From the NCBI GenBank assembly GCA_024137785.1, contig JAHRHZ010000077.1, positions 24,592,006-24,656,005 of the forward strand: a stretch of DNA of 64,000 bases, read 5' to 3'. A program made the translations under genes and the position numbers. The stretch's first letter is position 1. Every line of letters begins with the position of its first letter. Shown piece by piece: positions 1 through 61,749 of the stretch. Below the pieces are notes generated by a model. That model was not told the origin of the DNA. It ran no database searches and worked only from the letters and a program-made list of their open reading frames with translations. This stretch comes from Ginglymostoma cirratum (taxonomy: Eukaryota).

Positions 1-125
1 AAGAAGGGTTTAGGCCCGAAACGTCAAGTTTTCCTGCTCCTCTGATGCTGCTTGGCCTGCTGTGTTCATCCAGCTCTACATTGTGTTATCTCAGATTCTC
101 CAGCATCGGCAGTTCCTACTACCCC
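1..125 (+). mobile_element. PLE family-A terminal repeat (pLTR) fragment; hammerhead core cut by the window edge
   Basis: aagaagggtttaggcccgaaacgtc...ttatctcagattctccagcatc, same sequence family as 648-800 and 61405-61546. Confidence 0.85.
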
Positions 126-647: not shown

Positions 648-1374
648 AGAGATAAAAGGTACTGCAGATGCTGGAGAATCCGAGATAACAAGGTGTGGGG
701 CTGGATGAACACAGCAGGCCAAGCAGCATCATTGGAGCAGGAAAGCTTGACGTTTCGGGCCTAGACCCTTCATCAGAAATGGTGGAGGGGAAGAGGGTTC
801 TGAAATAAATAGGGAGAGATGGGGAGGCGGATAGAAGATGGATAGAGGAGAGGATAGGTGGAGAGGAGGCAGACAAGTCGAAGAGGCGGGGATGGAGCCG
901 GTAAAGGTGAGTGTAGGTGGGGGGGTAGGGGGGAGATAGGTCAGTCCAGGGAGGACGGACAGGTCAAGGGGGCGGGATGATGTTAGTAGATAGGAGATGG
1001 GGGTGTGGCTTGAGGTGGGAGGAGGGGTAGGTGGGAGGAAGGACAGGTTAGGGAGGCGGAGATGAGCTGGGCTGGTTTTGGGATGCGGTTGGGGGAGGGG
1101 AGATTTTGAAGCTTGTGAAATCCACATTGATACCATTGGGCTGCAGGGTTCCCAGGCTGAATATGATTTGCTGTTCCTGCAGCCTTCGGGTGGCATCACT
1201 GTGGCATTGCAGGAGGCCCAAGATGGACATGTCGTCTGAGGAATGGGAGGGGGAGTTGAAATGGTTCCCGACTGGGAGGTGCAGTTGTTTGTTGCGAGCT
1301 GAGCGCAGGTGTTCTGCAAAGTGGTCCCCAAGCCTCCGCTTGGTTTTCCCACCCGTTGTGGCTTCCTCTACATC
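648..1374 (-). mobile_element. 5'-truncated Penelope-like retroelement (family A): GIY-YIG endonuclease C-terminus + 3' region/pLTR
   Basis: ORF 1048-1395 gives KTKRRLGDHFAEHLRS...PVGNHFN...RRLQEQQIIFSLGTLQPNGIN, typical of a PLE GIY-YIG domain. Confidence 0.9.
745..780 (-). ncRNA. Minimal type-I hammerhead ribozyme motif in pLTR
   Basis: AUUU-CUGAUGA-A-GGGU(CUAG)GCCC-GAAAC-GUC-AAG on - strand. Confidence 0.7.
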
Positions 1375-18715: not shown

Positions 18716-18769
18716 GGAGTTATTAGGAATGTAAATGTTGTATAGTCAGTTGGGTAGACACAATTCTTT

Positions 18770-20442
18770 AAAAACCAAAAGAACTGCGGATGCTGTAAAT
18801 CAGGAACAAAAACAAAGTTGCTGGAAGAGCTCAGCAGGTCTGGCAGCATCTGTGAAGGAGAAAACAGAGTTAACGTTTCGGGTCTGGTGACCCTTCCTCA
18901 GAACTGATGGTGGCTGGGAAAATGTCAGTTTATATGCAGAAAATAGGGAGGTGGGTGGGGTAGGAAGTAAACAATAGGATAGACCCCAAGAGAGGGAAAG
19001 ACAGTTGGACAGACAAAGGAGTTGCTAACGATCAGGCTGGGAGAGTGAGTAGTTGTTAATGGGGACTGTTAGTGACTAACAACAGGGGGTGTGTAATGGC
19101 AGGCTATAACAAAGCCTGGTGTGTGGGGTGGGGGGCTGGGACATGGGAGAGTTTAGGCCCTAAAATTATTGAATTCAATATTGAGTCCGGAGGGCTGTAG
19201 GGTCCCCAAGCGGAAAATGAAGTGTTGTTCCTCCAGCTTGCGCTGGGCTTCACTGGAACATTGTAGCAAGCTGGACAAAGAGATGTTGGCCAGGGAGCAG
19301 GGTGGTGCATTGAAGTGGTAGGCAACAGATAGTTCAGGGTCTTTTTTGCGAGCAAAACGTAGATGTCCTGCGAAACAATCGCTGAGTCTACGCTTCATTT
19401 CCCCAATGTAGAGGAGACCACACTGTGAGCACCAAATGCAGTAGACTAGATTCTTGGAAGTGCAGGTGAAGTGTTCCTTCACCTGGAAGGTATGTTTGGG
19501 CCCTTGGGTACTGGGGAGGGAGGAGGTAAATAGGCAGGTGTCGCACCTTCGCCGGTTACAGAGGAAGGTGCCATATGGCTGTGGGGAGGTGTTGGGGGTG
19601 AAGGAAGTGTGGACCAGGGCATCCCGGAGGGAACAGCCCCTGTGGGAGGCAGACAAAGAAGGGGAGGTGAATATGTGTCTGGTGGTGGCATCTGGCTGGA
19701 GGTGGCAGAAATGGCATCTGGATGTGGATGCTGGTGGGATGGTAGGTGAGGATAAGGGGAACCCGATCGCTGTTGCGGGAGGAAAGAGAAAGGGTGAGGG
19801 CAGAAGTGCGGGAGATGGGTCGGACCCGATTGAGGGCCCTGTCAACAACAGAGCTGGGGAATCCTCGGTTGAGGAAGAATGTGGACATTTCGGAGGCTCC
19901 CTTGTCAAAGTTGGCCTCATCTGAACATATGTGATGGAGACAGAGGAACTGAGAGAATGGGATGGAGTCTTTACAGGAAGTGGGGTGTGAGGATGTATAC
20001 TCCAGGTAGCTGTGGGAGTCAGTGGGTTTGTAATGGATATTAGTGGCCAGTCTATCCCCAGAAATGGAAACAGAAATGTCGAGGAAGGGAAGGGAGGAGT
20101 CAGAGATAGACCAGGTGAAAGTGAGGGCAGGGTGGAAATTGGAGGCAAAATTGTTGAAGTTTTCCAATTCTAGACGAGAGAAGGAAGCAGCACCGATGAT
20201 ATCATCGATGTATCAGAGAAAGAGTTGTGGGTAGGGACCGGAATAGGACTGGAACAAGGAATGTTCCACATATCCCACAAAGAGACAGGCATAACTAGGG
20301 CCCATGTGGGCACCCACGGCAACCCCTCTTACCTGAAGAAAATCGGAGGAGTTGAAACAGAAGTTGTTGAGGGTGAGGACAAGCTCGGCCAAGCGGAGGA
20401 GGGTGGTGGTGGGTGGGGATGGTTCAGGTCTTTGCTTCAGGA
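18770..20442 (-). mobile_element. Penelope-like retroelement (family B, Neptune-like), 5'-truncated: RT core + thumb + Cys linker + GIY-YIG + pLTR, with 14-bp TSD
   Basis: QVRGVAVGAHMGPSYA, FL*YIDDII (CGA>TGA), LPFLDISV, YKPTDSHSYL, CNRRRCDTC, VYCIWCSQCGLLYIGE. TSD AGACACAATTCTTT at 18756-18769 and 20443-20456. One stop and one frameshift. Confidence 0.95.
18868..18905 (-). ncRNA. Minimal type-I hammerhead ribozyme motif, family B pLTR
   Basis: AGUU-CUGAGGA-A-GGGUC(ACCA)GACCC-GAAAC-GUU-AACU; stems I and II are fully Watson-Crick. Confidence 0.75.
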
Positions 20443-20456
20443 AGACACAATTCTTT

Positions 20457-22195
20457 GCAGCCTAGACAGTGAGCCCAGAAGAAGTTTCTTGCCATTACCA
20501 GTGCTTGAGACATTTGGTCAGGACTGGAGAGGAATTTGCAATGGGAGAAGTAGGATCCATTTGTCGTGGTCCATGTGATAACATAGATAGCAAATAGCTT
20601 CTGCAAAGGGAGTATGATAAAAAGCAAAAATTTTTGACCTGCTGTGTTCATCCAGCCCCATGCTTGTTATCTCGGATTCTCCAGCATCTGCAGTACCTTT
20701 TATATCTTCGATTCATGGGACACTGGTTTCAGTTCATGGGCACTAGTTTGGGTAAAATTAGATCTGTCCCAATAGGATGAGCTCCATCTGAACCAGGCTG
20801 AGACCAGTGTTCTGATGAGTCATTTAACAAGGGAAGTAGAGAGGTCTTTAAACTGAATAGTGGGGTGGAGGGGGTATGTATGAAGAGATGTAGTAAGTCA
20901 GTGGAAAGCAACAGGCAATGAATAAGAGTAATGATAATGAGATCATAGTAGATTGGGACAGACTGTACAAACGTAAAAATGTACTGGCAGATAAGGCCAT
21001 ACAATAAGAGGGCATATAATAAAAAGGCAGTGTCGAAGATTCTGTATCTGAATGCAGCATTTGTAACAAAATGTATTAACAGGTGTCACCTACAACAACA
21101 GATGTACGTGACTTAATAGCCATTACAGAGACATGATTCTAAGGTGTCTATGGCTGGGACCTAAATATTGAAACATATTTAATTATTAAAATGCCAGGAA
21201 GCTAGGAAAAGGTGCTGGCTAGCTACATTCATTTAAGATATGGTATCAGATTGATAAGAAATAAGAAATAGGAATGCTAATAGGAGGTCACTTGTGAGAT
21301 TACCACCTCTTCCCACCCTTCCCCAAACTGTATTATATTGTGGGGCAAAGTTACAGGAAGAAATAAGTGGGTCATATGAGAAAGATGTCACAATGATTGT
21401 GGGTAACTTTAATCTACATGTAGATTGAGCAGAGGTAACATAGCAGTGTATCTAGAACACTTCTTTGAGCAGTACATTCCAGAGCCAGTTAGGGAGCAGG
21501 CTATCCTAGATCTGATAGTGAACAATGTGACAGGTGAAAGTGATCATTATATGGTAAAATTTCATGTTCAATTTCAAGGGAAGAAGTTTGTTCTAAGACC
21601 GGTGTTTTAAACCTACATAATGATATGAAGGCAGAGCTGGCTAAAGAGTACCGGGAAATTAGGTTAAAAGGTGGGATAGCAGAGGCACAACAACAGATTT
21701 TTAAAGAAATATTTAACAACAAGGGTATATCATAGTGACAAAGAAACTACCTTTGAGAAAGATGCATCGTCCATGGCTAAATTCAACAGTTTAGGATTGT
21801 GTTTCTATAGGAAAACATAACTAAAGCTAGTGTTAATCCTCCAGAACATGAGTCTGGAAAACTGATGATGGTGTCCCAGGAAATGATGGAGATGTTGAAG
21901 ATTGTGTCTGTCTTCATTGTAGAAAATTTAGAAAACTTTCTGAAGACATTTGAAAATCACAATGTGAAAGGGAAGGAGGAACTTAAAACAGTCACAAAAC
22001 AAGTGTTTATACATAATAAGGAGTAACATTAGCATGGATAAAGGGTTGGTTAGCTAACAGGAAACACAACTTCTGACTGGTGGAGTTCCATTTGGATCAG
22101 TGTTAGGGCCTCAACTATTTACAGGCTGTGTCAATGACTTTCATGAAGGACCTAAAAGTATGGTAGCTAAATAAGCTGATTACACCAAGATAGAA
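20457..22195 (+). mobile_element. Old CR1-type LINE (ORF1 esterase remnant, APE and RT remnants), host of nested insertions; continues at ~23525-24660
   Basis: DTILCSLDSEPRR (ORF1), LIAITET, IVGNFNL, EQYIPEPVREQAILDLI (APE), GSVLGPQLF and ADYTK (RT) remnants. Confidence 0.75.
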
Positions 22196-23525: not shown

Positions 23526-24665
23526 AGGCTATGAAAATAAGTTGTCAAGAGGAGGTAGAGAGTTTGCAGAGAGATATAGCTGGATTAAATGAGTGGGGAA
23601 CCATTGGCAGATGGAATGTACTGTGGGAAAATGTGAACTTGTCCACTTTGACAAGAACAGAACAACAGGATGCTGTTTAAACTGAGAGAGATTCCATACT
23701 TTAGAAGCACAGAAGCATTTCTGAAGAAGGGTCTAGGCCCAAAACATCAGCTTTCCTGCTCCTCTGATGCTGCTTGGCCTGCTGTGTTCATCCAGCTCCA
23801 CACCTTGTTAGCTCAGGATCTGGGTGTGCTTGTCTATGAGTCACACAAAGTTAGTTTGCAGGTACAGCAATTATAAGGGAAAATGGAATGTTGCCAGTTA
23901 ATGCAAAGGGATTGGAATATAAAAGTAGGGATGTTTGCTTTGGTTGTAAAGGGTCTTGTTGAGATCACATCATATGTTCGTTTTTGGCCTTCTGATTTGG
24001 AAAAGGATGTAATCACAAAGCAATTTAGAGAACAGATAAAAATGTATTCCTCTGACAAAGAAACATTGAGTATGTTGGGCCTTTACATGCTAGAGTTCAG
24101 TAAAATGAGAGGTGATCTTAGTGAGATGTAAGGTCCTAAGAGGACTTGACAGGGTAGATTCTGACAGCTTCTTGTAGGAGACACTAGAATTAAGTTTAAG
24201 AATAAGATGTCTAGCTTTTAAGATGAGGAGAAATGTTTCCTGTTCGATGTTTGTCTTTGGAATTTTCTTCCCCAGAAAGCAGAACTCTGGGTTATTGAAT
24301 TTATTCAAGGTGAGCGAAATAGATTTTTGGTAAGGGATTACTGGGCAAACAGACATGACTAGCCAGGAACAAAAACAGAAGTTGCTGGAAAAGCTCAGCG
24401 GGACTGGCAGCATCAGTGAAGGAAAAGACAGAGTTAACGTTTTGGTTCCGGTGACCCTTCTGAGGAAACGTTAACTCTGTTTCTTCCTTCACAGATGCTG
24501 CCAGACCTGCTGAGCTTTTCCAGCAACTTTATTTTTTTCTCCTGATTTACGGCATCTGTAGTTCTTTCAGTTTTTATTAAGACCAGCCATGATCTTATTG
24601 AATGGTGGAGCAGGCTTAAAAGGCTGATTGGCCTCATTCAGCTCCTCAGTCCTAAATTCTGTGTT
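23525..24665 (+). mobile_element. Continuation of the old CR1-type LINE, interrupted by PLE pLTR pieces at ~23716-23815 and ~24364-24580
   Basis: WQMECTVGKCELVHF, DLGVLVYESHKV, MRGDL, 3' UTR agccatgatcttattgaatggtggagcaggc. Confidence 0.75.
24364..24580. mobile_element. Inverted pair of family-B pLTR fragments
   Basis: 24364-~24460 (-) and ~24465-24580 (+) are imperfect reverse complements around ...gacccttc tgaggaaacgttaac. Confidence 0.85.
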
Positions 24666-34489: not shown

Positions 34490-37400
34490 CAGGAAAGACT
34501 GAACAAACTGAAGATGTTTTCTCTGGGAAATAGGAGATGGGGGGTCTAACAGAGGTTATTAAAATTATGGAAGTGAACGATAGGGTAAACACAGAGAAGA
34601 TCTTTCCACTTGAGGGAGAGACCAAAGATAGGGACCGCCAATAGAAGACAGCCTCTGAGAAATGGAATCGTGAATTCAGGAAAAATCCTTTTAGCCAGTC
34701 AGCTGTGAAAATGTGGAACTACTTATCACAGGAAATGGCTGAGGTGAATCGTGGAGATGCATTTAAGGGAAAACTAGATAAATACATAAGACAGAAAGGA
34801 ATAGAAATATATATTTAACTAGAGATGCCATTGATGCAATAATTATAGAAAACTTTGGTTGGGAAGATCAGGGTATAGAATTGGTTTGGTTAGAGATAAG
34901 GAATACTGTAAGCTGTCACCAGCAGAAGTGATCTCCAGGCCCTCTAACAGTACCCACAATGTAGACTGAAGTAAGGAAGAATGTTGGCTGCTTGTGATAA
35001 AGGGATAGGAATAATCACACATGACTTTAATCTACGTATAAAGTGGAAAAATCAGATGGCAATGGTAGCCCGAATGAGAGAGTTTCTTAGAGCAGCAAAT
35101 TCTAGAACAGACCAGAAAGTAGGTTATATTAGACTTGACATTGTGTAATGTGATAGGATTAGCAAACTACCTCAGTGTAAAGGCAGCGACAACAATATGA
35201 TTGCATTTTATATTCAGGTTTGAGAGAGAGAAGAGTGTGCCTCGGCCTAGTATTTTAAACTGAAATAAGGGCAAATATGTGGGCATGCAAGCTAAACTGA
35301 CTGAAGTGAACCTGAATGCTAGGCTCAAAGACAGATCAATACAGAAACAATGGCAGACATCTAAGGGGATATTTCAGAATATTCAGAATAAGTATATTCA
35401 TACTATTGAGGAAAAGTTTTAAGGTGAGGATCAATCATTTGTAGCTAACTAAAGAAGTTAAGGAAAATTTCAAACCTAAAGAAAATGCACATGATTATGC
35501 AAAGATGAGTGGCATGTCAAATGATTGATCATGATGTAAAGGACAGCAGAGACTGACTATAAGATTAACCAGTAGAAAGAAATTGGAATATGAGAGGAAG
35601 CTAGCTAGAAATGTAAAAGTGGGTAGAAAGAGTTTCTACCAACATTTAAAAAGGAGAAAATAACCAAGGTGAATGTTATTCTCTTGAGGATAAGAATGGG
35701 AAGTTGATAGAATTTAATATGAACAAATTAAACACATAAATATTTTGCTTCTGTGTTCACTATAGATCAGACAAAAAACATTCATATAATCCAATATTCA
35801 AATTCCAAAACTCAGGAGGTGGCAGGAAGAGAGACACTTGATGAAATTACAATTACTAGGGAAGTGTTACTGTGAAAATTGATGGAGCTGTGGGCAAGCC
35901 CACAAGTCCTGATGGACATTGACCTAATGTCTTCAAAGAAGTGGCAAATAAGCTCATGGGTGCATTGGTGTTAATTTTTCAAAGTTTGCTAGATTCTGGA
36001 AAGTTTCCACCAGACTGATGAGTTGCGAATATGACTTCTACTTTCACGAAAGGAGGAAGGCGGAAACTATAGGTCAATTACTTTGAAAACTGTCGTAAGG
36101 ATATTGTTAGAATCAAACATTAAAAAGATTATAACTGGGCACTTAGGAAGACGCAAGATAATTGGAAAGAGCTGGGATGATTTTAGAAAGGGAAATAGTG
36201 TTTAACCAATTTACTGGAGATTTTTGAGGTAGTAACATCGCTGTGGTTAAAAGGAAACCTTACTGCAATAATTTAAAGAACTAATTTAAATAATTTAAAG
36301 GGACTTGAAATGTTAACTCTGTTTCTTTCTCCACAGATGCTGTTACATGCTGAGTTTTTCCAGCACTCTCAGATTTTATTTCAGACTTCCAGCAGGACAG
36401 TATTTTGGTTTTATTGCCGATGGATACAGTACTTGGATTTCCAGAAGGCATTCGACAAGTTGTCGTATAAAAGATGAGGGAAGCAAAGGCATGGCAGTTA
36501 AATTTGCAGATGACACGAAGACAGCTGGAAAGTATATTGTAAAGAGAACATAAGGAAGTTTCTGACAGATAGACAGATAGAGTGAGGGAGAAAAATATCT
36601 GACTGATGGTGTATAATGTAAGAAATGTAAAGTTTAACAGGGAAAATAAAACGACACCATTATCTAAACAAAGAATGTCTGCTGAATTCTGAGGGATCTC
36701 TAGTGCACAAATCACAAAATGTTTCTATACAGGTGCAGCACGTAATCAAGAAGACTAAAGGGATGCTATACTTTGTTGTGAGAGGAATTGAGTAGAAATT
36801 TAAGAATGCTATGCATCAGTTATACAGGGTATTTGTGAGTCCATGTTTGAAAAATAAACAAATTCTTCGAGATGTTATTAAACACCTCTGGGACAGGTGG
36901 GACTTGAATGCTGGCCTCCTGGCTCAAAGGTGGAGATACTACCTCTGCACCACAACAGCTGTCTGTTGTGAAAACGGTTTGGTTTCCTTATTCAAGGAAG
37001 GATCTAAACGTGTTGGAGGTGGTTCAGAAGAGGTTTACCAGATTGATACCTGACATGAGCAGCCTGTCTTATGAGAAATGTTTAGACAAACTCGGCTTGT
37101 TTCTTCTGGGGTTTGGAAGAGTGAGGGTTGAATTCATTGAAGCACATAGGATCCTGCCTTGACAAGGTAAATGTGGAAAGAATGTTTCCACTTGTAAGCA
37201 GGTCCAGAAATAGGGGGGAATGGTGTAGAAATTAGCTCCCCTTTATGACAAGGTGGGGAGATGTATTTTCTATCAGAGATTTGTACTACTTTAGAACTCT
37301 TTACCTTAGAAAGCTAGTGGAGGCAGGGTCAATGATAATTTGAAAGGAAGAGATAGGTTTTTGTTAGGCAAGGGAATCAAAGGATATTAAGTGTAAATAG

Positions 37401-37723: not shown

Positions 37724-37833
37724 GTCAGCGTCGAGTGTTTGACCTTACAGCTGGGAGCTGCTTGTTTCGTAGTGAGGTTTATGAACATAGGACAGTATTC
37801 CAGCTTGATAACTGCACTATTTGTGTGTGTGAG
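37724..37833 (+). CDS. BMPER: BMPER internal exon, (G)[36 protein letters not shown]; last BMPER exon found in the window
   Basis: tttgcag/gtatgt splice sites, 110 nt, phase 1->0. Matches [37 protein letters not shown]. Confidence 0.95.
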
Positions 37834-38630
37834 GTATGTGTCAAGATCTTCTTTCTAAACACTGACATTTTAACTTCCACGTGCTGGAGAGTGAACCAGC
37901 TGCTGATCAGTGCAACTGGATGTGGCCTCAAAGTGAGGCAATTTTGGAGTTGGGGGCAGTGGCATTGATATTAGGAGTTAGCACAGGAAGAGAGACACCT
38001 GGAGAGACACCCATGCCTGAATTTTCCCAACCCTGTGGAGACAGGGTCGGAGGTGGGGATTTAGTTGGGGAGGGGAGCTGTGTTTGACGGAGCTGGGGTA
38101 ATAGGGGTAATTTTCATTAGGATGGTGTACAAAGCATTCCAAACCCTGGGGAAATTTGCTGGGCTGGGATTCAGATCAGGTGTGTGTAGCATGGAGGGTA
38201 ACAGCCAATGAAGGTGGTAAAGGCCTCATTAGGTGTGATTTTGTAGAGACTGCCAGCTCAATGGCCTCCAGCAGAAGAATGGTGGGGAGGGGCATTGGTT
38301 CCAGAGACTCAATCTCCCTTTGAAAGGGCCGCTAGCTGGAAAAGTTTCACAAATGGCTCAATAGCTCATCCAGAGAGGAACTAACAGCATTGTCCGATAT
38401 ACTTCAATGTTTTCCTCACATCTCTGTCTGCCTCAGCAGAGCCAATCTGTCACAGGCTCCAGAAACTTTCCATTAGAGTGAGCTGGCACCATTGAGGGGC
38501 TGGCTGGATAGTAAGTGAGGAACAGCCAATCAGGAAACATTCTTTGGAATCATTGTTGAGCCAGTATTGCCACTGGGATCTCCTTTCTGTCCCAATATCG
38601 AGTTGGAATGCCATGGGTCAATCAGCCACA

Positions 38631-38749
38631 GGAAATTCTGGCAGTGGGATCAGGGAGGGAGATTCTGGGAGTGGGATCAGGGAGGGAGATTCTGGCAGTG
38701 GGATCAGGGAGGGGGATTCTGGCAATGGGATCAGGAAGGGAGATTCTGG
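38631..38749. repeat. 27-bp G-rich minisatellite (GATTCTGGCAGTGGGATCAGGGAGGGA), ~4.4 visible copies, runs into the 10-N gap
   Basis: Direct tandem repeat; ORF track shows GDSGSGIRE periodicity. Confidence 0.92.
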
Positions 38750-38769
38750 NNNNNNNNNNAAAAAAAAAA

Positions 38770-39930
38770 CAATCTCATTCACTAAAGTCCTTCAGGGAAG
38801 GAAATCTGCCACCCTCACCTGGTCTGGCCTACATGTGATTCCAGACCCACAGCAATGTGGTTGATACTCCATTGCTGTCTGAAATGGACTGGCAAGCCAT
38901 TCAGTTGTACCAATTGCTACAAAGTCTCAAAGAAATGAAACTGGATGGATCACCTGGCATCGACCTAGACACTGGAAAAGGCGACAACGGCAGACACAGT
39001 CCTGTCGACCCTGCAAAGTCCTCCTCACTAACATCTGGGGGTTAGTGCCAAAATTGGAAGAGCAGTCTCACAGGCCAGTCAAGTGACAGCCTGGCGTAGT
39101 CATACTCACAGAATCATACCTAACAGACAATGTCCCAGACACCGCCATCACCATCCCTGGATATGTCCTGCCCCACTGTCAGGATAGACCCAGCCGAGAT
39201 GGTGGTATACAGTCGGGAGGGAGTTGCTCTGGAAGACCTCAACATCGACTCAGGACCCTAAAGGACATAGCTGCTAGACTGGGTCTGCAGCAGATAGTGA
39301 GGGAACAAACAAAAGGGAAAAACATACTTGACCTTATCCTTACCAATCTGCCAGCTACAGATGCATCTGTCCATGACAGTATTGGTAAGAGTGACCACCG
39401 CACAGTCCTTGTGGAGACGAAGTTCTGCCTTCACATTGAGAATAATCTCCATCATGTTGTGTAGCACTATTAATGTGCTAAAAGAGACAGACTTCTCACA
39501 GATCTAGCAACTCAAAACTGGACATCCATGAGGAGCTGTGGGCCATCAACAGCAGAAGAATTGTACTCCAGCACAATCTGTAACCTCATGGCCCGGCATA
39601 TCCCCCACTCAACCATTACCATCAAGCCAGGGGATCAATCCTGGTTCAATGGAGAGGGCAGGAGGGCATGCCAGGAGCAGCACCAGGCATACCTGAAGAT
39701 GAGGTATCGACCTGGTGAAGCCACCAAACAGAACTACTTGCACACCAAGCTGCATGAGCAGCAAGTGACAGACAGAGCTAAGCGATCCCATAACCAACGG
39801 ATCAGATCTAAGCTCTGCAGTCCTGCCACATCCAGTCATGAATTGTGGTGGTCAATTAAACAACTAGGCACAGGCAAAAATGCTGGCCAGCCAGTGACGC
39901 CCACATCCCACTAATGAATAATTTAAAAAA
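38770..39930 (+). mobile_element. Internally deleted CR1/L2-group LINE: SlmI-like core, then APE endonuclease remnant, then 3' tail
   Basis: gggaaggaaatctgccaccctcacctggtctggcctacatgtgattccagacccacagcaatgtgg, then TNIWGLVPKL...VVILTESYLTDNVPD, LDLILTN, IGKSDHRTV, then tail gctggccagccagtgacgcccacatccc. Confidence 0.8.
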
Positions 39931-39940
39931 TTTTAAACAG

Positions 39941-40069
39941 TCTGATGAAGGGTTTAGGCCCGAAACGTCAAGTTTTCCTGCTCCTATGATGCTGCTTGAC
40001 CTGCTGTGTTCATCCAGCCCCATGCTTGTTATCTCGGATTCTCCAGCATCTGCAGTACCTTTTATCTCT
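39941..40069 (+). mobile_element. Solo family-A pLTR beginning at the hammerhead core (39942-39969)
   Basis: tCTGATGAagggtttaggcccGAAACGTCaag...cagtacctttatctct. Confidence 0.88.
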
Positions 40070-40809
40070 CTCCAGTTCCATCCCAATGAGTTGGTAATCT
40101 GGATCTTTGCCTAATGCACCCTGTAAATGAACTGACCTCCCCCAGGAGTTTAAGGGTTCTTCAGTGCTGGCCACAGCACATGATAGCTATTGAGCACCAA
40201 AGTCCTAACACCCGAGTGCTCAAATTCCACAGCAGAGATCCTACTCCTCTTCAAAGTTGTACAATGACATTCCTTACACACACCTGCCAGACCATACCCT
40301 GTTCTCATGTGATCCAAAAGACAGCCCCTTTTACTCTGATGCATTCCCTTCATGCTGCAGCTAAAATTTTGTGTCCAAGTTTTGTGGAGTGAAGCTTGAT
40401 CCTACAACCTTCTGACTCAGAGACAACTGAGTCATGGCTGAGGATGAATTTTGGGATGATACAGGAACTAATTTGCAGGGAAGGAATCCTCATTGATTAT
40501 TAGAATATGTGCTGTTAAAACAAAGAAGATACAAAATAAACAAAAACTTGATACAAATGACCTTGTCAGGTATTTTTATAATGGCCAATAGAACAATTCA
40601 ACTAATGTTTGATAAACAGCAAATGCTGTATTCAATGACAGTCATGAAAGGTGCCAAATAAATGCAAGTCGTTATTGTCAAGCATTGCTCATCTTTTGGT
40701 GTTGATCACTTAACGACCAGGATACCACAGAAATGAGGTCAAGCATGTTGCAGTCTCTTAATCTCAGCAGGCATAAGCTCCAGAGCTGCCAAAACAGGAA
40801 TGTGCTCTT

Positions 40810-41582
40810 ATTCCTTAAGTGGTCTATGTTTGAATGCAGCAAGACCTGGATAATATCCAGGTTTACACTGACAAATAACATTTGCGTCAATATATCACCA
40901 GCCAACGATTATCTCAAATGAGAGAATCTAACCATGACCTCTTGAAATTCAATGACATTACCATTGACCAGAACTATACTGAATTAGCCACGAGATTACT
41001 GTGACTACAGCAGGTCAGGCGCTAAGAATCCTGTAGTCAACAGCTCATCTCCTGATTTCCCAAAGCCACTCTACCATCTACAAAGGACACGTCAGGAGTG
41101 TGATGGAATACTCCCCATTTGCCTGGGATGAGTGAAGCTCCAACAACACTCAAGAAACTTGTCACCAGCCAGAACATACCATGATTGGGACCACATCCAC
41201 AAACATTCACTCCCTCTATACCAATGCTTAGTAGTAATACTTTGTAGATTCTACAAGATATACTGCAGAAATTCACTAAAGGTTCCTTGATGGCACTTTC
41301 TAACCCATAATTGCTACCATCTAAAGGCAGCAGATACATGAGAACACTGCAACCTGCAAGTTTCGCATCAAGCCATCTCCATCCTAACTTGTAAAAATGT
41401 TGTCAATCCTTCAGTGTTGCAGTGTCAGAACCTTGGACCTCCCTCCCTCAAAATACTCTGGATATATCCTCACCAAATGAACTGCAGTGGTTCAAGACAA
41501 CTTATCATTACCTTGTCAATAGGGATAGATGATAAATTCTAGCCAAACCAGTGATGGGCATGTCCCATGAACGAATTTAAAA
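40810..41582 (+). mobile_element. CR1/L2-group LINE 3' part
   Basis: STIYKGHVRSVMEYSPFAW motif and the family 3' tail; further copies at ~44420-44760. Confidence 0.8.
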
Positions 41583-41798
41583 AGACGGCATCCAAGAAAA
41601 ATCAGAGTTACTGGGGAAAGGCAAATGTCAAGAAAACAGCTAAAGTGTTCAGAAAATGTAAACAGAAAATTAGATGAAAACAGACAATGTTAGAAACTCA
41701 ACAGCACCTGTGGAGAGAAGAGGCAGTAAAAATAGCAACGACCAAAAACATGTATCTAGAAAAATAATGGCAAAACTTCATGTTTTACTCACAAAATT

Positions 41799-41804
41799 TT
41801 TATT
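41799..41804 (-). promoter_or_regulatory. Candidate polyadenylation signal (AATAAA) of the DPY19L1-type gene
   Basis: AATAAA on - strand ~210 nt after the stop codon, followed by T/GT-rich sequence. Confidence 0.55.
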
Positions 41805-42012
41805 GAAAATAATCACATATTGCATAACTCCATAAAGACATGAAAATTCTGTTTATAAAGAAACACAAAGATCATATTTTTACATTTGTTTTCATCTTCA
41901 TTCGCACCTCCTGTCACTTTCTTCAATCAATTTGGAACATTTCATCTGCACAGCAATGTTCAACCAGAATTGGCTTTGAAATTCCCTTGTTTATCCAAAT
42001 TAGCATAGATTT

Positions 42013-42181
42013 CTATGTCCAGTTGAGACTTTTCTTTATCTTTAAGACTTTGTAAACGTCATTCTGAAACACAGGGGTGAAGTGAGGGGCAGGCGACTTG
42101 GAAAGAATTGAACACAGCGGGGGTTTCATTGCATTATGCGTATCTTCCACGTCCCAAATTTCTGGCATGCTGCAACCAGGC
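42013..42181 (-). CDS. DPY19L1: DPY19L1-type C-mannosyltransferase, terminal coding exon PGCSMPEIWDVEDTHNAMKPPLCSILSKSPAPHFTPVFQNDVYKVLKIKKSLNWT*
   Basis: cag acceptor at 42184-42182, TAG stop at 42015-42013. Matches the recalled DPY19L1 C-terminus PGCSMPEIWDVED...HFTTVFQNSVYKVL. Confidence 0.93.
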
Positions 42182-48781: not shown

Positions 48782-49484
48782 CTAACAAAAGGAGGAAACA
48801 AAAAGAAGCCATGAAACAAACTTCCAAGCTAATTGCTTTTATTTTGGTTAAGGGAGAGACAAACAGAGCAGTAAAAGAATTCACAGCTCTGACAAACAAA
48901 TGCACCCTATACATAAGTCTCAACAACAAAGGGATTTTTACACATAGCTGGTAGTTCAAAACATGCCTTTTATTTCACAAACCTATATAAAAGCACAATG
49001 AAGAAGCATGAAGATCTGAAACGTTAACTGTTTCCGCTCCACAGTTATTGTCTCTTGCTGAGTATTTCTAGGATTCTTAATTGTTATTTCAGATTTCCAG
49101 TATCTGCAGTATTTTCTTTTTGCATGATAGGACAGGGTTTACTATAGTACCTTCTGCTATTTTGTGTTACGGAAAACATGACGGAAGAAAAGCATTAACA
49201 ACAGCAGCAGGATTAATGTAAACTGCCAATAGAGTCTGAGATAACAAGGTGTAGAGCTGGATGAACACAGCAGGCCAAACTATCTCAGATTTCCCAGCAT
49301 CTGCAGTTCCTACTATCTCTGCCAATAGAGTCTGCTCTGCAATTTGATATGATTGAGACAGATCAGATTATGCCCTCAGCCCCACTTTCCTGTACAGTCT
49401 TCATAATGCTCAACATCCCAATAATTCAAATGCGGTTTAACTCAGCTTGAAAATGTTCAATGCCCCAGCATTCACTGCACTCGT

Positions 49485-54004: not shown

Positions 54005-54300
54005 CAGAAACGTAGAAGACAGAAGTAAGAGTAAGCCATTTAACCCCTCGAGCCTGCTCAACCATTCAATATGATCATGGCTGATCATTGAGCTCACTAC
54101 CCTAACCCTGCTCTTCCCATCCCTTGATCCGTTTAGCCACAAAAGCAATAGCTACCTGCTTCTTGAAAACACAATGATTTGGCTTCAATACATTTTCTGT
54201 GGTAGTGATTTCCACAGGCTCTCCACTCTCTGGGTGAAGAAATTTCTCCTCATCTCAGCCCTAAAAGGTTTACCCTTTATCCTTAAACTATGTCACTGGT
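54005..54300 (-). mobile_element. CR1-type 3' end
   Basis: MRRNFFTQRVESLWKSL and 3' UTR atcagccatgatcatattgaatgg. Confidence 0.8.
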
Positions 54301-54369
54301 TTGGGACTGGCGATTGTTGTGCAGTCCCCGTTTAACTGTTGTCATAGCATCTGTGATGACATAACTTGT

Positions 54370-54995
54370 GTCCACTACCTTCCCAGAGTGGAGAAACAAT
54401 GCCATATCCTTCGCAGCCTTCAGCATGCCATTGATGATGACAAACATCTTGCCAAGGCCATCCCTACACCTCCACTACTCACCTTCAAACAGCCGCCTAA
54501 TTTCAAACAGACCATCATTCATAGCAAACTACCCAGCCTTCAGGAGCACAGCAACCACAACACCATACAACCCTTCCACAGCAACCTCTGCAAGACATGT
54601 CAGATCATCGACATAGATATTATATCACACATGGGAACACCACACACCACATACACAGTACGTACTTATGCAACTTGGACAATGTTATCTACCTCATATG
54701 CTGCAGGAAAGGACACCCCAAGGCATAGTATATCAGTGAGACCATGCAGATGCTACAATGACGGATGAATGAAAGCCGCGCAACAATCACCAGGCCAGAG
54801 CATTCCCACCCAGTCAGGGATCACTTCAGCGATCAAGGACATTCAGTCTCCTACCTTCTGGTAAGCGCTGTCCAAGGCAGCCTTCGAAATACACGACAAA
54901 GCAGAATCACCTGGCAGAAACGGATAGCCAAGTTCCATACTCATGGAGGAAGGCCGCAAACGTGATCTTGGCTTCATGCCATGTTACTTATATCC
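54370..54995 (+). mobile_element. Third PLE family (Neptune-like): thumb/linker + GIY-YIG remnant
   Basis: PPLLTFKQPPNFKQ, PFHSNLCKTC, NVIYLICC, YISETMQ, RMNESRATI, PVRDHFS. Confidence 0.82.
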
Positions 54996-57604
54996 CCACC
55001 ACGCGCAATAACACTGACCCTTTCCATTTCCCATGCCCCTCTCTTTGATAGTAAATCATGCACCAGATATGAAATCTGCCCCAGGCAATCTAGTGCGATG
55101 TCTCAATGCTATTCTAACATTATTTTCTAACACTTGAGCTTTAACGGACACTTTCCTTTCAACAAGTAACACACTTAGATTGGTGCAAAAAAGAAATCAA
55201 GCCAATCGTTGTTCCTTCTCGTGCTGCCAGAACGTCATGAAATTTTGAAGGCAAGTTGGAATTTTGATCGTATACTAACTGGATGGGCTGTAACCTTATT
55301 TCATCTGCAAGGATGTTTTTGAATGTGCTGCTCTGCTCATTCCAGTGCAATTTGTAACTTATCATCCAGCTGATCTGACAGTGTTTCATGCAACATCTCA
55401 TCAATTACCACGTGGTTTCTTTTGCACAAGCTATTGTTGAGTGGACTTACTGCAGCAATATGCATTTCTATAGTAAAGTTCTAGCACGTCCCAAAATTCT
55501 TCACTTGCAAATTCACCTCCGCTACCCATTAAGATTTTATTGCTGACCGAAAGCCTGTGCTGCCCCACTTTTCCAAGACTTTGCCTACTATAGGTTATCT
55601 GTCCTTATTGTTCATCACGATAGAAACGCTAAACCTGAATAAATAGTCTATGCACTTTCCATGTAATCATTTTCTTATCAGCCAGAGTCCTTTCTGCGGT
55701 TGTCAATGACAGATCTTGGACCTCTTGACAAGGAGCATCAGGTTTCTTCTATTGTATTCCATTATGTCTGTATCTCATGAATCGCAAGATTACTGTTTTA
55801 CTGAATGGAAATGTTTCATCATTCTTCATGTCTAAATGCATTTTAGCTTTTTTCAGTCAAAGACTTAGTAATAATGACATATTACTCTGGATGCTATTGG
55901 TGCTTATGAAATGTTACAACCCTAGGTTTTCAAATAACAGTTCAGCTAATCAGCACCACAAACTGCTGAGATCCAGCCACTTTGGCACAACCGAATGAAT
56001 AACTAATTCTGATACCTAATGGCTGACTTAAATATTCGGCCACTATCAAAATATTTTCTTGCTGTTCATCCTGATCATATTTGCCCTCAGAACTATTTGT
56101 TTCACGAACTGCTTCAAATACTTGACTCCTTACCCTTGGACAATTCCTGACATAGGTTTATTTAGAGTCATACCAGAAACATCTATTAACTTGGGTTTCT
56201 GGGATTTCTTTTTTGCTGTCTATTACCCCAATCCTGCATTTTCCCTTGATTCAGAAATCTATAAAAGATACGAGCCACATTTTTCAGCAACTCCAACATT
56301 ATACAGGTTGTCTGTGACTAGATCCCCCTTTGACTTTGAGAGTCAGTAAATATAGTCATCCATTATCTGCATCACTGCAGAATTCCTAACATGCCCTGTG
56401 AAGGCCATAATGACATAGGTGCAGAATTAGGCCACTTGGTCCATTGGGTCTACTCTGCCATTCCATCATGGTGATATGTTTCTTAACTCCATTCTGCTGC
56501 CTTTAGAGATGTACAAAAGTTTTATGTAAATCTTTTAATACGGTACACACATCGGTCCCCACCTTTCCTTTCTGGACCCTTCCCTATCCAGAAGCCAGCA
56601 GCCATGAGGGAAAATGCAGCTTTTTCTTTAAAAGTATAAATACACCAATTAGCAAATTAACAAATCATCCAACTAACAAATAATACAGAACTAAAAACAA
56701 AATCAACATAAATACAAAAGGGGAAAAACAAGGGAGAGGACTAGATCAAAAGACCGTTGGAGGAGAGTGGTGCCCAGTTATCAAAAGCTCAGTTGGTTAA
56801 AATATAAAAAAAATCCCACTGCCAAATTAATCAACTACCAAATTACAAACACTGTTCACTAGAGGCAGTGAAAAAAAGAGTCAAGTAAAGCGGTACGAGG
56901 GAAGGAACTAAATCAAAATAGTGTTGGAAGGAAAGTTAATGCACCCCAGCCCCTGCCGTGCCCAACTATCAAGAACTCAGCTCTCTTTTTGTAATGATCC
57001 AACACCAAATTACCTGTTTGATAAATTAGATAAGTTACAAGCTCTACCCACCAGGCACAGTACAGTGCAATAACAAAATATAAGGGAGGGTTGAAAGGGA
57101 GGCACAAGACCAAGCTAAAATGAAGTTGGATGGGGAAAGAACTCCGCATTTGTTTTTGAAATCAACCTGTCAAGTCTGGAGCTGATTTGTTTAAGCCTTA
57201 AAGGGACCTGCATTTCCAACCCTGATAGGAAGAAAGTTGCATTACGTCACTGCATTATTGGGGTTATGAAGGATTCCTGGCTGCCTGGGAGACGATCTCT
57301 CCCAGAATTCCAGAAACTTAAGCATCATAATAGTCCAACTATTGGGACTCTGGAGAGTTTCTGCTAGTTTGGCGGATGGGTTCAGAGCAATGAATCAAAA
57401 GCAACATATAATAAATGATAACATCCTAAGGGTTACTAGACCCGAAGTGTTAACTCTGATTTCTCTCCACAGTGTTGCCAGACTTGCTGAGCTTTTCGAG
57501 CAATTTCTGATTTTGTACCCTTGGATCTGTGCTTGTGAGTGTTTGATGCTGTGCATTTTTTTTTCTCTCAGGGTTAGCAAGCTATAACAGTGTTCTTCCT
57601 TTCA

Positions 57605-58369: not shown

Positions 58370-59180
58370 GGCATGGACAGATAAGTGAAAAGCAATATTA
58401 ATTCCACACAGATATTGGATAATGATCATCTCCCAATGCCATTCCCATTGCAGAATCCCCATTAGCAACATTCTGCAAATTGCCATTGACCAGAAACCTG
58501 ACCAGCCGTATAAATTCTGTGGCTACAACAGCAGATCAGAGGCTGGGTATTTTGGAGCAAATCGCTCAACTCCTTACTCCCCAGTGCTTGCTAACATCTA
58601 CAAGGTCCAATTTCAGAGAATTATCAAATACTGCATGCAGCTCCAACAACACCCAAGAGGTTTGAAAGTATCCAAGTAAAAACAACCTGTTTTCCTGAAA
58701 TCTCATTCACTACACTTGCCATGTAGCAGCTTTGTGTTTTAGGGTTAGCATTGGGCAAAACCTAACCACCGTCATTAGGGAGATAGTAGGAACTCCCTAG
58801 GCCTGAAACGTCAGCTTTTCTGCTCCTGAGGCTGCTTGGCCTTTTGTGTTCATCCAGCTCTACACCTTGTTATCTCACCATCATTAGGGAGCTCGGTAGG
58901 AAGGCTCCTTTTTTGGCAGCATCTTATAAATCTGTGACCTCTATCACCTAGACGACTAAGGGCAGCAGGAACAGGCAACACCACTACAACCTGCAAGCTC
59001 CCCTCCAAGTCCCCACCATTCTGACTAGGAAACATAAGGCTGCTCCCTCAGTGCTGACTTAATATCCTGGAACTCTCTTCCCAACAGCACAATGGAAATA
59101 CTTACACCCGAGACTGCAGCAGTTCAAGGCAGCAACTCATCAGCACCTTCTCCAGAGCATTTAGGATGCCAGAGACCCTC
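58370..59180 (+). mobile_element. CR1/L2-group LINE 3' part interrupted by a PLE mini-insertion (58783-58875)
   Basis: IDQKPD, ATTADQRLGIL, NIYKVQ remnants and the family 3' UTR. Confidence 0.75.
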
Positions 59181-59866: not shown

Positions 59867-60924
59867 CTACAAATAAAAAGGAAACAATTACCACTTTCAG
59901 AAGGTCAAGAAAGGTTTTAAAGTTCTAAAGCACATTAAAGAAAGCTCAACATTTAATGATTAGAAAAACAGTGTAGACAGCTCAGTTTAAAAAAAAGTTT
60001 ACCAATAAACAGTGCATATTTGTTTGTTAAATGTTAACAGTTAATAGAAGGGCAAAGACTCGCACTGAAGGTTGTTGAACTGACACAGCTGCACACAAAT
60101 TACTGTATCCAGGAGCTTAAAAATGACCCAGGAAGGAGGAGGCTTTCCAGTCTAAATGCCAAGTTATGCTCAACCAAAACCTCTACCACTGAGCCCAAAC
60201 TTAACATGCTGTTCAATTTTCACTCCCAAGATGCCTTTAACAGTCCCATTTTTAAAGGGGTCACAATTAAATGATGAAAAGAAAATCAGCATGCCATTTT
60301 CCAAGAGCTAGGAACCATAACTCCAACCTGGGCTCCTAGGTGCATTTCCCTTTTGTACACTGATGTGGTGCTTACAAATACCAGGCTACATGAGATTCCT
60401 CTGGGGGCTAAGATCAGGAAAACTTCTGTCCTAAGGAATTTCTGCCTTAATCCTACCATCTCTTGTGCTCCTAGCGTTGTGTGTAGCAAGTCAAACCTCC
60501 ACCCTTTAGTAGCTTATGATGCACAGTACCCAGATCCTCACTAGTCCACCACTGACTTTACATTATTAACATCCTGGAACTACTATGAAATTCTTGCTCC
60601 CACTCTAGTCCCTGTATATTTCAACAGTTGAATTGGCTGAGGCATCATGCACTGATAAAAACATAAAGCAATTTTAAATGAAATAAAATGCAAATAATTA
60701 CAAATGCACAGAATTATAGCCTAAAATGACAGCATTCAGTTCATTGTGACTGTATTGTGTTATGATGGCTTAATATTTAATTTTTTGTGGACTTCAGTTT
60801 GAAGGATTGCAGATAACTAGATTGTATCAGAGATAAAAGGTACTGCAGATGCTGGAGAATCCGAGATAACAAGCATGGGGCTGGATGAACACAGCAGGTC
60901 AAGCAGCATCATAGGAGCAGGAAA

Positions 60925-60960
60925 ACTTGACGTTTCGGGCCTAGACCCTTCATCAGAAAT
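60925..60960 (-). ncRNA. Minimal hammerhead ribozyme motif (family A), sense to the DPY19L1 pre-mRNA
   Basis: AUUU-CUGAUGA-A-GGGU(CUAG)GCCC-GAAAC-GUC-AAGU. Confidence 0.72.
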
Positions 60961-61448
60961 GGGGGAGGGGAAGAGGGTTCTGAAATAAATAGGGAGAGAG
61001 GGGGNNNNNNNNNNNNNNNNNNNNNNNNNNNNNNNNNNNNNNNNNNNNNNNNNNNNNNNNNNNNNNNNNNNNNNNNNNNNNNNNNNNNNNNNNNNNNNNN
61101 NNNNNNNNNNNNNNNNNNNNNNNNNNNNNNNNNNNNNNNNNNNNNNNNNNNNNNNNNNNNNNNNNNNNNNNNNNNNNNNNNNNNNNNNNNNNNNNNNNNN
61201 NNNNNNNNNNNNNNNNNNNNNNNNNNNNNNNNNNNNNNNNNNNNNNNNNNNNNNNNNNNNNNNNNNNNNNNNNNNNNNNNNNNNNNNNNNNNNNNNNNNN
61301 NNNNNNNNNNNNNNNNNNNNNNNNNNNNNNNNNNNNNNNNNNNNNNNNNNNNNNNNNNNNNNNNNNNNNNNNNNNNNNNNNNNNNNNNNNNNNNNNNNNN
61401 NNNNCCCCCTCTCTCCCTATTTATTTCAGAACCCTCTTCCCCTCCCCC

Positions 61449-61484
61449 ATTTCTGATGAAGGGTCTAGGCCCGAAACGTCAAGT
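61449..61484 (+). ncRNA. Minimal hammerhead ribozyme motif (family A)
   Basis: ATTT CTGATGA A GGGT CTAG GCCC GAAA CGTC AAGT. Confidence 0.72.
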
Positions 61485-61749
61485 TTTCCTGCTCCTATGA
61501 TGCTGCTTGACCTGCTGTGTTCATCCAGCCCCATGCTTGTTATCTCAGATAACTAGATTGCTTTGTTTTAAACAATGTTGATGAAATGGTACAATTTTTT
61601 TCAAAAACAAGAAATTACTTGGAGTCTGTGATTCTAGATAATTGCTGGCCTTAATAGTTTGAACTCAGTTTGGGGAAAACACCCAACCGTTTTTATGACT
61701 GAGAATGATCGCTGGTTGAAATAAAAAGAACGTAAATGGAGCAAGACTG

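Follow-up and report, generated by a model that had tools for sequence, protein, structure and literature searches.

The window analysed here, a stretch of 64,000 nucleotides from the shark Ginglymostoma cirratum, carries exons of two host genes, BMPER on the + strand (residues 69-257, at 16345-37833) and a dpy19l1-like gene on the - strand (residues 518-773, at 59866-42016), both with their best matches among bamboo- and epaulette-shark proteins. BMPER ends after residue 257, the exons for residues 258-677 being absent from the window; 4.2 kb further on, beyond a 10-N gap at 38750-38759, comes the last exon of dpy19l1-like on the opposite strand. This BMPER/dpy19l1-like junction (37833-42016) suggests either missing sequence or a scaffold misjoin. 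Since the exons for dpy19l1-like residues 1-517 are absent from the window, the locus under study, a hammerhead motif at 61449..61484 (+) within a dispersed repeat, is probably intronic.

The motif lies in a repeat that forms the 3′ terminus of a Penelope-like element (PLE) with RT and GIY-YIG domains from an orectolobiform shark; we call this element family A. A 5′-truncated family A element at 648..1350 (-) comprises the GIY-YIG C-terminus (1072-1350), a pyrimidine-rich UTR, a hammerhead at 745-780 with a stem I of 3 bp and a tail. Its frame at 1072-1350(-), upstream of the motif, shares 91% identity over 93 aa with P0001, a whale-shark protein according to its source, which matches RVT_1 and GIY-YIG. 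The earlier note on this DNA had described the motif as a PLE terminal-repeat minimal type-I hammerhead, and this upstream frame supports that description together with the fit to the published consensus presented below. Other family A copies are a short one with a tail at 39941..40069 (+), which begins at the core and lacks the 5′ strand of stem I (the truncated motif at 39942-39969(+) keeps the core and 1 bp of stem I), a copy at 1..121 (+) within whose core the window starts, a decayed copy at 23716..23819 (+) carrying G-to-A changes at G12 and G16.2, each within a CpG, and a 3′ fragment at 20634..20707 (+) without a hammerhead. The copies at 39942, 60925 and 61449 are 98.9-100% identical. 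With 8 insertions (~1,650 bp in the window), family A is the most abundant dispersed repeat by insertion number, as had been claimed, but not by bases, as one RVT_1-bearing LINE-type cluster occupies 2,517 bp. Comparison of family A (600-1360) with four public runs, which are contigs, returned 25,117, 15,312, 85,690 and 202,368 matching records, so that the family, with 15,312-202,368 records per run, is very abundant. Among the public runs listed as carrying it, none is on record as RNA, which says nothing about expression.

A second family, B, is represented by a PLE relic at 18769..20443 (-) with a partial RT, a Cys linker, a GIY-YIG domain and a complete hammerhead at 18872-18901, whose protein is 57-64% identical to P0001. 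Family B and P0001 share a CX4CX2C linker between RT and EN, while the corresponding region of family A lies outside the window. A CX2-5CxxC linker at this position marks both the Neptune and the Nematis clades (PMC8557442), and the linker of family B and P0001 therefore agrees with Neptune while being common to Nematis too. We also observed older B-like short copies at 36302-36412 (74%) and 57428-57519 (83% to family B), whose 5′ ends likewise lie inside a broken hammerhead, and a third, decayed and distant PLE relic at 54265-54848(+), with ~30% identity to P0002 (E=2e-4) and no intact hammerhead downstream.

The focal copy reads, on the + strand, as the 5′ strand of stem I, AUUU (61449-52), the core CUGAUGA (61453-59), an extra A (61460), stem II, GGGU and GCCC (61461-64 / 61469-72), enclosing the loop CUAG, then GAAA (61473-76), CGU (61477-79), C17 (61480) and the 3′ strand of stem I, AAGU (61481-84), with a predicted cut after C 61480. 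The letters and coordinates reported for this core, with AUUU/AAGU as stem I, proved correct when we re-read the sequence. A loose core pattern matched 6 times in the 64-kb window against 1.18 expected, and 0/100 shuffles reached 6. The full descriptor, which combined the core, a stem II of at least 4 bp, a palindromic stem III and UH, gave 5 matches, 4 of them with a stem I of at least 3 bp; as these matches are repeat copies, they amount to independent observations of two families only. In 300 dinucleotide shuffles, 6 contained one match without stem I (mean 0.02) and none contained a complete motif. The five matches are the four cores listed in the earlier note plus 18872-18901(-), a complete motif of the second PLE family that had been overlooked. 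The positions of the four cores and of the partial one at the window start were thus right, but 39942(+), with its 1-bp stem I, does not belong among the intact ones. Detection by hammerhead models, to which the earlier note had looked for confirmation, succeeded with the descriptor (4 complete motifs) but not with Rfam, a search of the window up to E=5 giving 2 matches and no hammerhead. One of these Rfam matches, MIR2118 (E=1e-4, far below the gathering score), corresponded simply to the family B inverted pair and was set aside. A 28-base pattern had 0 matches when scanned against metagenomes, and the focal 46-mer has a folding z-score of only -0.40.

Comparison of the two families points to constraint on the motif. 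Core positions are identical between A and B in 16/16 cases against 69/107 downstream columns (Fisher p=0.0017; p ~0.01 when restricted to the 92 ungapped columns), a comparison that is partly circular because family B was first spotted by the same motif search; the position of the family B motif is fixed independently through RT/EN homology. Upstream, 41/69 columns are identical. Stem I changes from AUUU/AAGU in A to AGUU/AACU in B, a compensatory double change from U-G to G-C, and one stem II pair is U-G in A and U-A in B. From this alignment, with its invariant core and its stem pairs kept between families, the hammerhead motif is judged to have been under past selection. Loose-end variants in the public runs alter position 7 and stem/loop II and keep the core; among 40 of the 183 variant rows none falls within 748-776, where only ~1.5 would be expected. 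We also considered, and rejected, conservation of a hairpin on the 3′ side of the cut site (z from -0.49 to -0.82, with a double change in 2/17 pairs).

These data bear on whether the motif could be a chance match or a non-functional look-alike. Its short stems, the focal z-score and the silence of Rfam would be expected of such a look-alike; against this, no shuffle produced a complete motif, two diverged PLE families carry the motif at one and the same location, its core unchanged and one stem pair compensated, and the motif matches the published consensus (PMC4209133). We regard a look-alike as having a negligible probability.

The class to which the motif corresponds is the minimal hammerhead (min-HHR) of metazoan PLEs described by Cervera and De la Pena in 2014 (PMC4209133), with the consensus CUGANGAH, a G10.1-C11.1 pair, a palindromic 15.2-16.2 and GAAA-C-G-U-H without loop 3; these motifs occur mostly as solo truncated copies in the pLTR, and pairs on opposite strands 100-700 bp apart have been published (PMC4209133). 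The shark motifs share the core CUGANGA ... GAAA ... UH, the unpaired base between 9 and 10.1 (5/5 descriptor matches), a helix II that opens with G10.1-C11.1 (4 bp in family A, 5 bp in B), the palindromic A-C-G-U without loop 3 in both families, and the location in the pLTR of an RT plus GIY-YIG element. Both features remarked on earlier, the additional A and a palindromic stem III without a loop, are present and are defining features of the published class (PMC4209133). Helix I, for which 2-6 bp are described (PMC4209133), has 4 bp at 61449, at 60925 and in family B and 3 bp at 745, and falls short at 39942 (1 bp). The shark motifs differ in their short helix II (4 bp, with a U-G pair) and its self-complementary loop CUAG. 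The alignment in supplement file 2 of that work (PMC4209133) has no shark row. The shark PLE family is thus an addition to a hammerhead class known since 2014; our literature search found no description of it, and Repbase, Dfam or supplements may list it.

The motifs at 60925..60960 (-) and 61449(+) lie in two head-to-head arms of one insertion. The left arm (60825..61004, -) is a pLTR piece with a 35-nt tail at 60829-60863 plus a few more tail bases and contains the complete motif at 60925, whereas the right arm (61405..61545, +) is a pLTR piece with a tail-less 3′ end, the 3′ end of the left arm lying ~35 nt beyond that of the right one; between them a 400-N assembly gap (61005..61404) leaves the interior of the insertion unread. 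The arms match at 145/146 positions, with 60925(-) and 61449(+) identical over 91/91 bases, and are bounded by an exact 15-bp direct repeat (60810..60824 and 61546..61560, +), for which the chance expectation is ~1e-5. PLE insertions are recognised in the literature by inversion, truncation and a 30-40-bp tail confined to one end (PMC8557442, PMC3846280), a signature carried by the focal insertion, an inverted 5′-truncated copy with a 35-nt tail at one end and a 15-bp duplication.

Three further inverted loci occur in the window. Two are small family A insertions, one at 49231..49320 with a tailed and a tail-less arm, a 16-bp duplication and no hammerhead, and the other at 58783..58877 with a 15-nt tail arm, a forward arm that starts from loop II and a 16-bp duplication with 1 mismatch. 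The third is the family B pair at 24364..24576, again with a tailed and a tail-less arm, in which both hammerheads are broken and the best candidate for a target duplication matches at 9/11. One tailed and one tail-less arm are therefore present at 4/4 inverted loci and 15-16-bp duplications at 3; for the non-inverted copies at 645, 20634, 23716 and 39941 no convincing target duplication was found. Among the loose ends listed for the public runs, positions 682-684 recur in 4/4 runs and 648 in 2/4, and these are the same two 3′ ends as those of the tail-less and tailed arms. In the forward arm of the family B pair (24455-24480), stem II appears to have been cleanly lost between two GAA repeats, as if the reverse transcriptase had slipped over the hairpin.

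The symmetry around the gap could also have arisen during assembly, if a single copy had been written onto both contig ends. Both arms end at the same base beside the 400 Ns, their match is nearly perfect, and the difficulty of short-read assembly at such loci has been published (PMC8557442). Nevertheless, the unique flanks differ and carry the exact 15-bp direct duplication, only one arm has a tail, as at the three gap-free inverted loci in the window, and strand-switch joints are present in independent runs. We consider an artefact most improbable.

Turning to the origin of the two arms, the closest mechanistic precedent is the Poseidon element PAc of Anolis carolinensis, in which both target strands are cleaved and extended (Frangieh et al. 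2024, PMC11167929) and the tail has been traced to the use of two start sites for reverse transcription, 30-40 nt from each other (PMC11167929). Like the shark PLE, PAc combines a pLTR hammerhead with genomic 3′ ends at two start sites (PMC11167929). PAc belongs to Poseidon, while the shark PLEs have instead a Cys-rich RT-EN linker of the Neptune/Nematis type. At the three clean inverted junctions of the shark there are 15-16-bp duplications and 1-4 bases of apparent microhomology, unlike PAc, whose start site is described as non-homologous to the cut DNA (PMC11167929). Following published PLE work, the element enzyme would nick both target strands ~15 bp apart, and reverse transcription would begin at two sites ~35 nt apart, so that one arm receives the tail and the other lacks it. 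We infer that the two arms arise by priming on both target strands; a literature search on twin priming with PLEs found, by title, no work on PLE mechanism. The three clean target duplications (loci 60810-61560, 49225-49335 and 58767-58891) all start with CA (CAGA, CAGA and CACC) and resemble the element bases past the tail-less end; the tail end, too, seems to have 2-3 bases in common with them, which would place microhomology at both junctions.

The orientation of the complete motifs relative to the host genes is mostly antisense. With BMPER on the + strand, 745(-) and 18872(-) are antisense to it, 18872(-) lying within a BMPER intron and 745(-) probably so; with the dpy19l1-like gene on the - strand, 61449(+) is antisense and 60925(-) is sense. 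Consequently, 3/4 complete motifs, including the focal one, are antisense to their host gene, and the only complete sense motif is 60925(-) in the dpy19l1-like gene. The family A copy at the window start (1..121) would be sense to BMPER, and 39942(+) lies between the 10-N gap and the dpy19l1-like stop codon, a position that need not be intronic. No same-strand partner is present near any complete motif in the visible sequence of the window; the 400-N gap may conceal a tandem one.

Predicted folding is unfavourable to the motif in its present context. In family A, pairing of the core with the substrate strand (UGAUG to CGUCA, predicted at -9.3 kcal/mol) is favoured over the hammerhead fold (-4.0), the predicted pairing probability of stem I is at most 0.01, and the two-arm duplex is predicted at -312 kcal/mol against -4.0 for the hammerhead fold; for dimers, a double-hammerhead fold is predicted at -6.3 against -33.8 for the best dimer, which is joined via the self-complementary stem II. 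These nearest-neighbour energies leave out Mg2+, tertiary contacts and help from proteins. As a separate observation, stem II and its CUAG loop (61461-61472) are together self-complementary, so that a 12-bp helix between two family A RNAs is predicted here and not at stem III. In published experiments, min-HHR monomers did not cleave and dimers cleaved weakly (PMC4209133; review PMC6765202), and 1/9 Xenopus dimers was cut (preprint 10.64898/2026.07.22.740005). The anole PLE hammerhead cuts only with the element protein added, is dispensable for insertion in vitro and, in the RNA-seq reported with it, has no reads starting or ending at the cut site (PMC11167929). In the public runs, the loose ends at 747/748, which adjoin the cut site, were considered as cleavage ends and rejected, since they are explained by a variant that differs by 1 base in length on the 3′ side of the cut and also occurs in runs guessed to be DNA.

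Within the parent element, and as published PLE work would lead one to expect, the RNA may pair two motifs via the ACGU palindrome, or the element protein may assist, and the motif so paired or assisted would cut slowly after GUC. In the dpy19l1-like gene, a read-through transcript would make the antisense arm first, and the sense motif would then be sequestered in a 146-bp duplex. The focal copy is likely inert because it runs antisense to the gene that probably hosts it and is opposed by its own perfect mirror image, and the loss of two core G's in the decayed 23716 copy was counted in the same direction. On this model the motif likely belongs to the cycle of the parent element, the copies in the window being inert. 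We therefore favour, with a probability of about 0.88, the reading that the motif is the minimal type-I hammerhead of a shark PLE pLTR and that the focal inverted arm is a likely inert by-product of insertion and not a working intronic ribozyme. In dpy19l1-like pre-mRNA, perfect pairing of the two arms (60859-61550) would yield a 146-bp RNA duplex, which would probably be a substrate for ADAR or small-RNA processing.

A different outcome would be in-vivo cleavage of host pre-mRNA by some of the solo copies, paired in trans with the many other copies or aided by the PLE protein, with consequences for transcripts of BMPER or dpy19l1-like. Copies of the family are very numerous, its cores are intact in very young copies (39942, 60925 and 61449), protein-assisted cleavage is known for the anole PLE (PMC11167929), and one complete motif, 60925(-), is sense to the dpy19l1-like gene, as the copy at the window start would be to BMPER. 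These points are outweighed, in our judgement, by the antisense position of three of the four complete motifs, by the 146-bp antisense arm that would be made earlier and oppose the sense copy, by the inactivity of published monomers and the low activity of dimers (PMC4209133), by the 8/9 Xenopus dimers that stayed uncut (10.64898/2026.07.22.740005) and by the anole RNA-seq, which is reported to have no reads ending at the cut site (PMC11167929), and we hold such cutting to be very unlikely. The same data leave the proposal of the earlier note, introns densely seeded with potentially self-cleaving motifs, some of them sense, largely unsupported where working motifs are concerned: three of the four are antisense, and the sole sense copy would be buried in duplex. 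The amniote intronic hammerheads of RECK, CTCL and DTNB, which are canonical and conserved across species (PMC6155905), resemble the shark motifs in having a type-I core within introns, whereas the latter are young, high-copy, mostly antisense and without an Rfam match.

Most of the short arms have their 5′ end inside the hammerhead. We compared 10 short arms with BLAST-defined 5′ ends, which for old copies are approximate, excluding two long copies, three arms cut by a gap or the window edge and one 15-nt arm. Numbering from C3 as +1, 7/10 ends lie at -4 to +23, 2 at +55 and 1 at +90; the cut site is at +28/+30, and the ends from -4 to +23 are all upstream of it. None of the 10 starts at the first post-cut base (+29 in A, +31 in B). 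In the public runs, 7 among 15 of the 252 joints have an end at 769-784, a clustering with p ~1e-6 against a uniform null, for an interval selected post hoc.

Ends upstream of the cut site agree with uncut RNA as the template, as in the anole system (PMC11167929). This pattern raises the idea that the main job of the shark PLE hammerhead in integration is structural and not catalytic, with the uncut motif stopping the RT or switching its template. Possibly joined to a second template by its palindromes, the uncut motif would fix where the ~100-130-base copies so plentiful in the genome begin at their 5′ end and where they invert, two templates being copied meanwhile from the two nicked strands. 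The same 5′-end pattern would follow if these copies descended from short master copies, and we regard the structural role as unlikely.

Cervera and De la Pena reportedly described non-LTR retrozymes in 2020. Such retrozymes are short PLE-derived units with a type-I hammerhead, and they have been reported in the sole chondrichthyan sampled (Li et al. 2026, 10.64898/2026.07.22.740005). Their head-to-tail units with complete hammerheads are not visible in the window, where the focal locus is head-to-head. The public runs contain tandem-like family A joints with periods of ~95, 87 and 51 nt, which suggests that same-strand tandem pairs, able to dimerise in cis, exist elsewhere in the genomes of these runs.

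The value of family A lies in the material it offers: it is young, very high-copy and has sharp junctions, and so permits a genome-scale count of 5′ ends, tails and duplications. Such counts bear on the role of PLE hammerheads and on the origin of inverted PLE insertions; the present findings lend no evidence for ribozyme control of BMPER or the dpy19l1-like gene.

Finally, an AG resembling a 3′ splice site at 61428-29, 23 bases upstream of the core, was unused in 15 of the 252 joints, which included no splice joint, and its use in splicing is unsupported. A pyrimidine tract ending in CAG is found at 61420-61429 and just upstream of 18901(-), hence in both families, and this tract upstream of the hammerheads resembles the intron end in the pLTR of Drosophila virilis.
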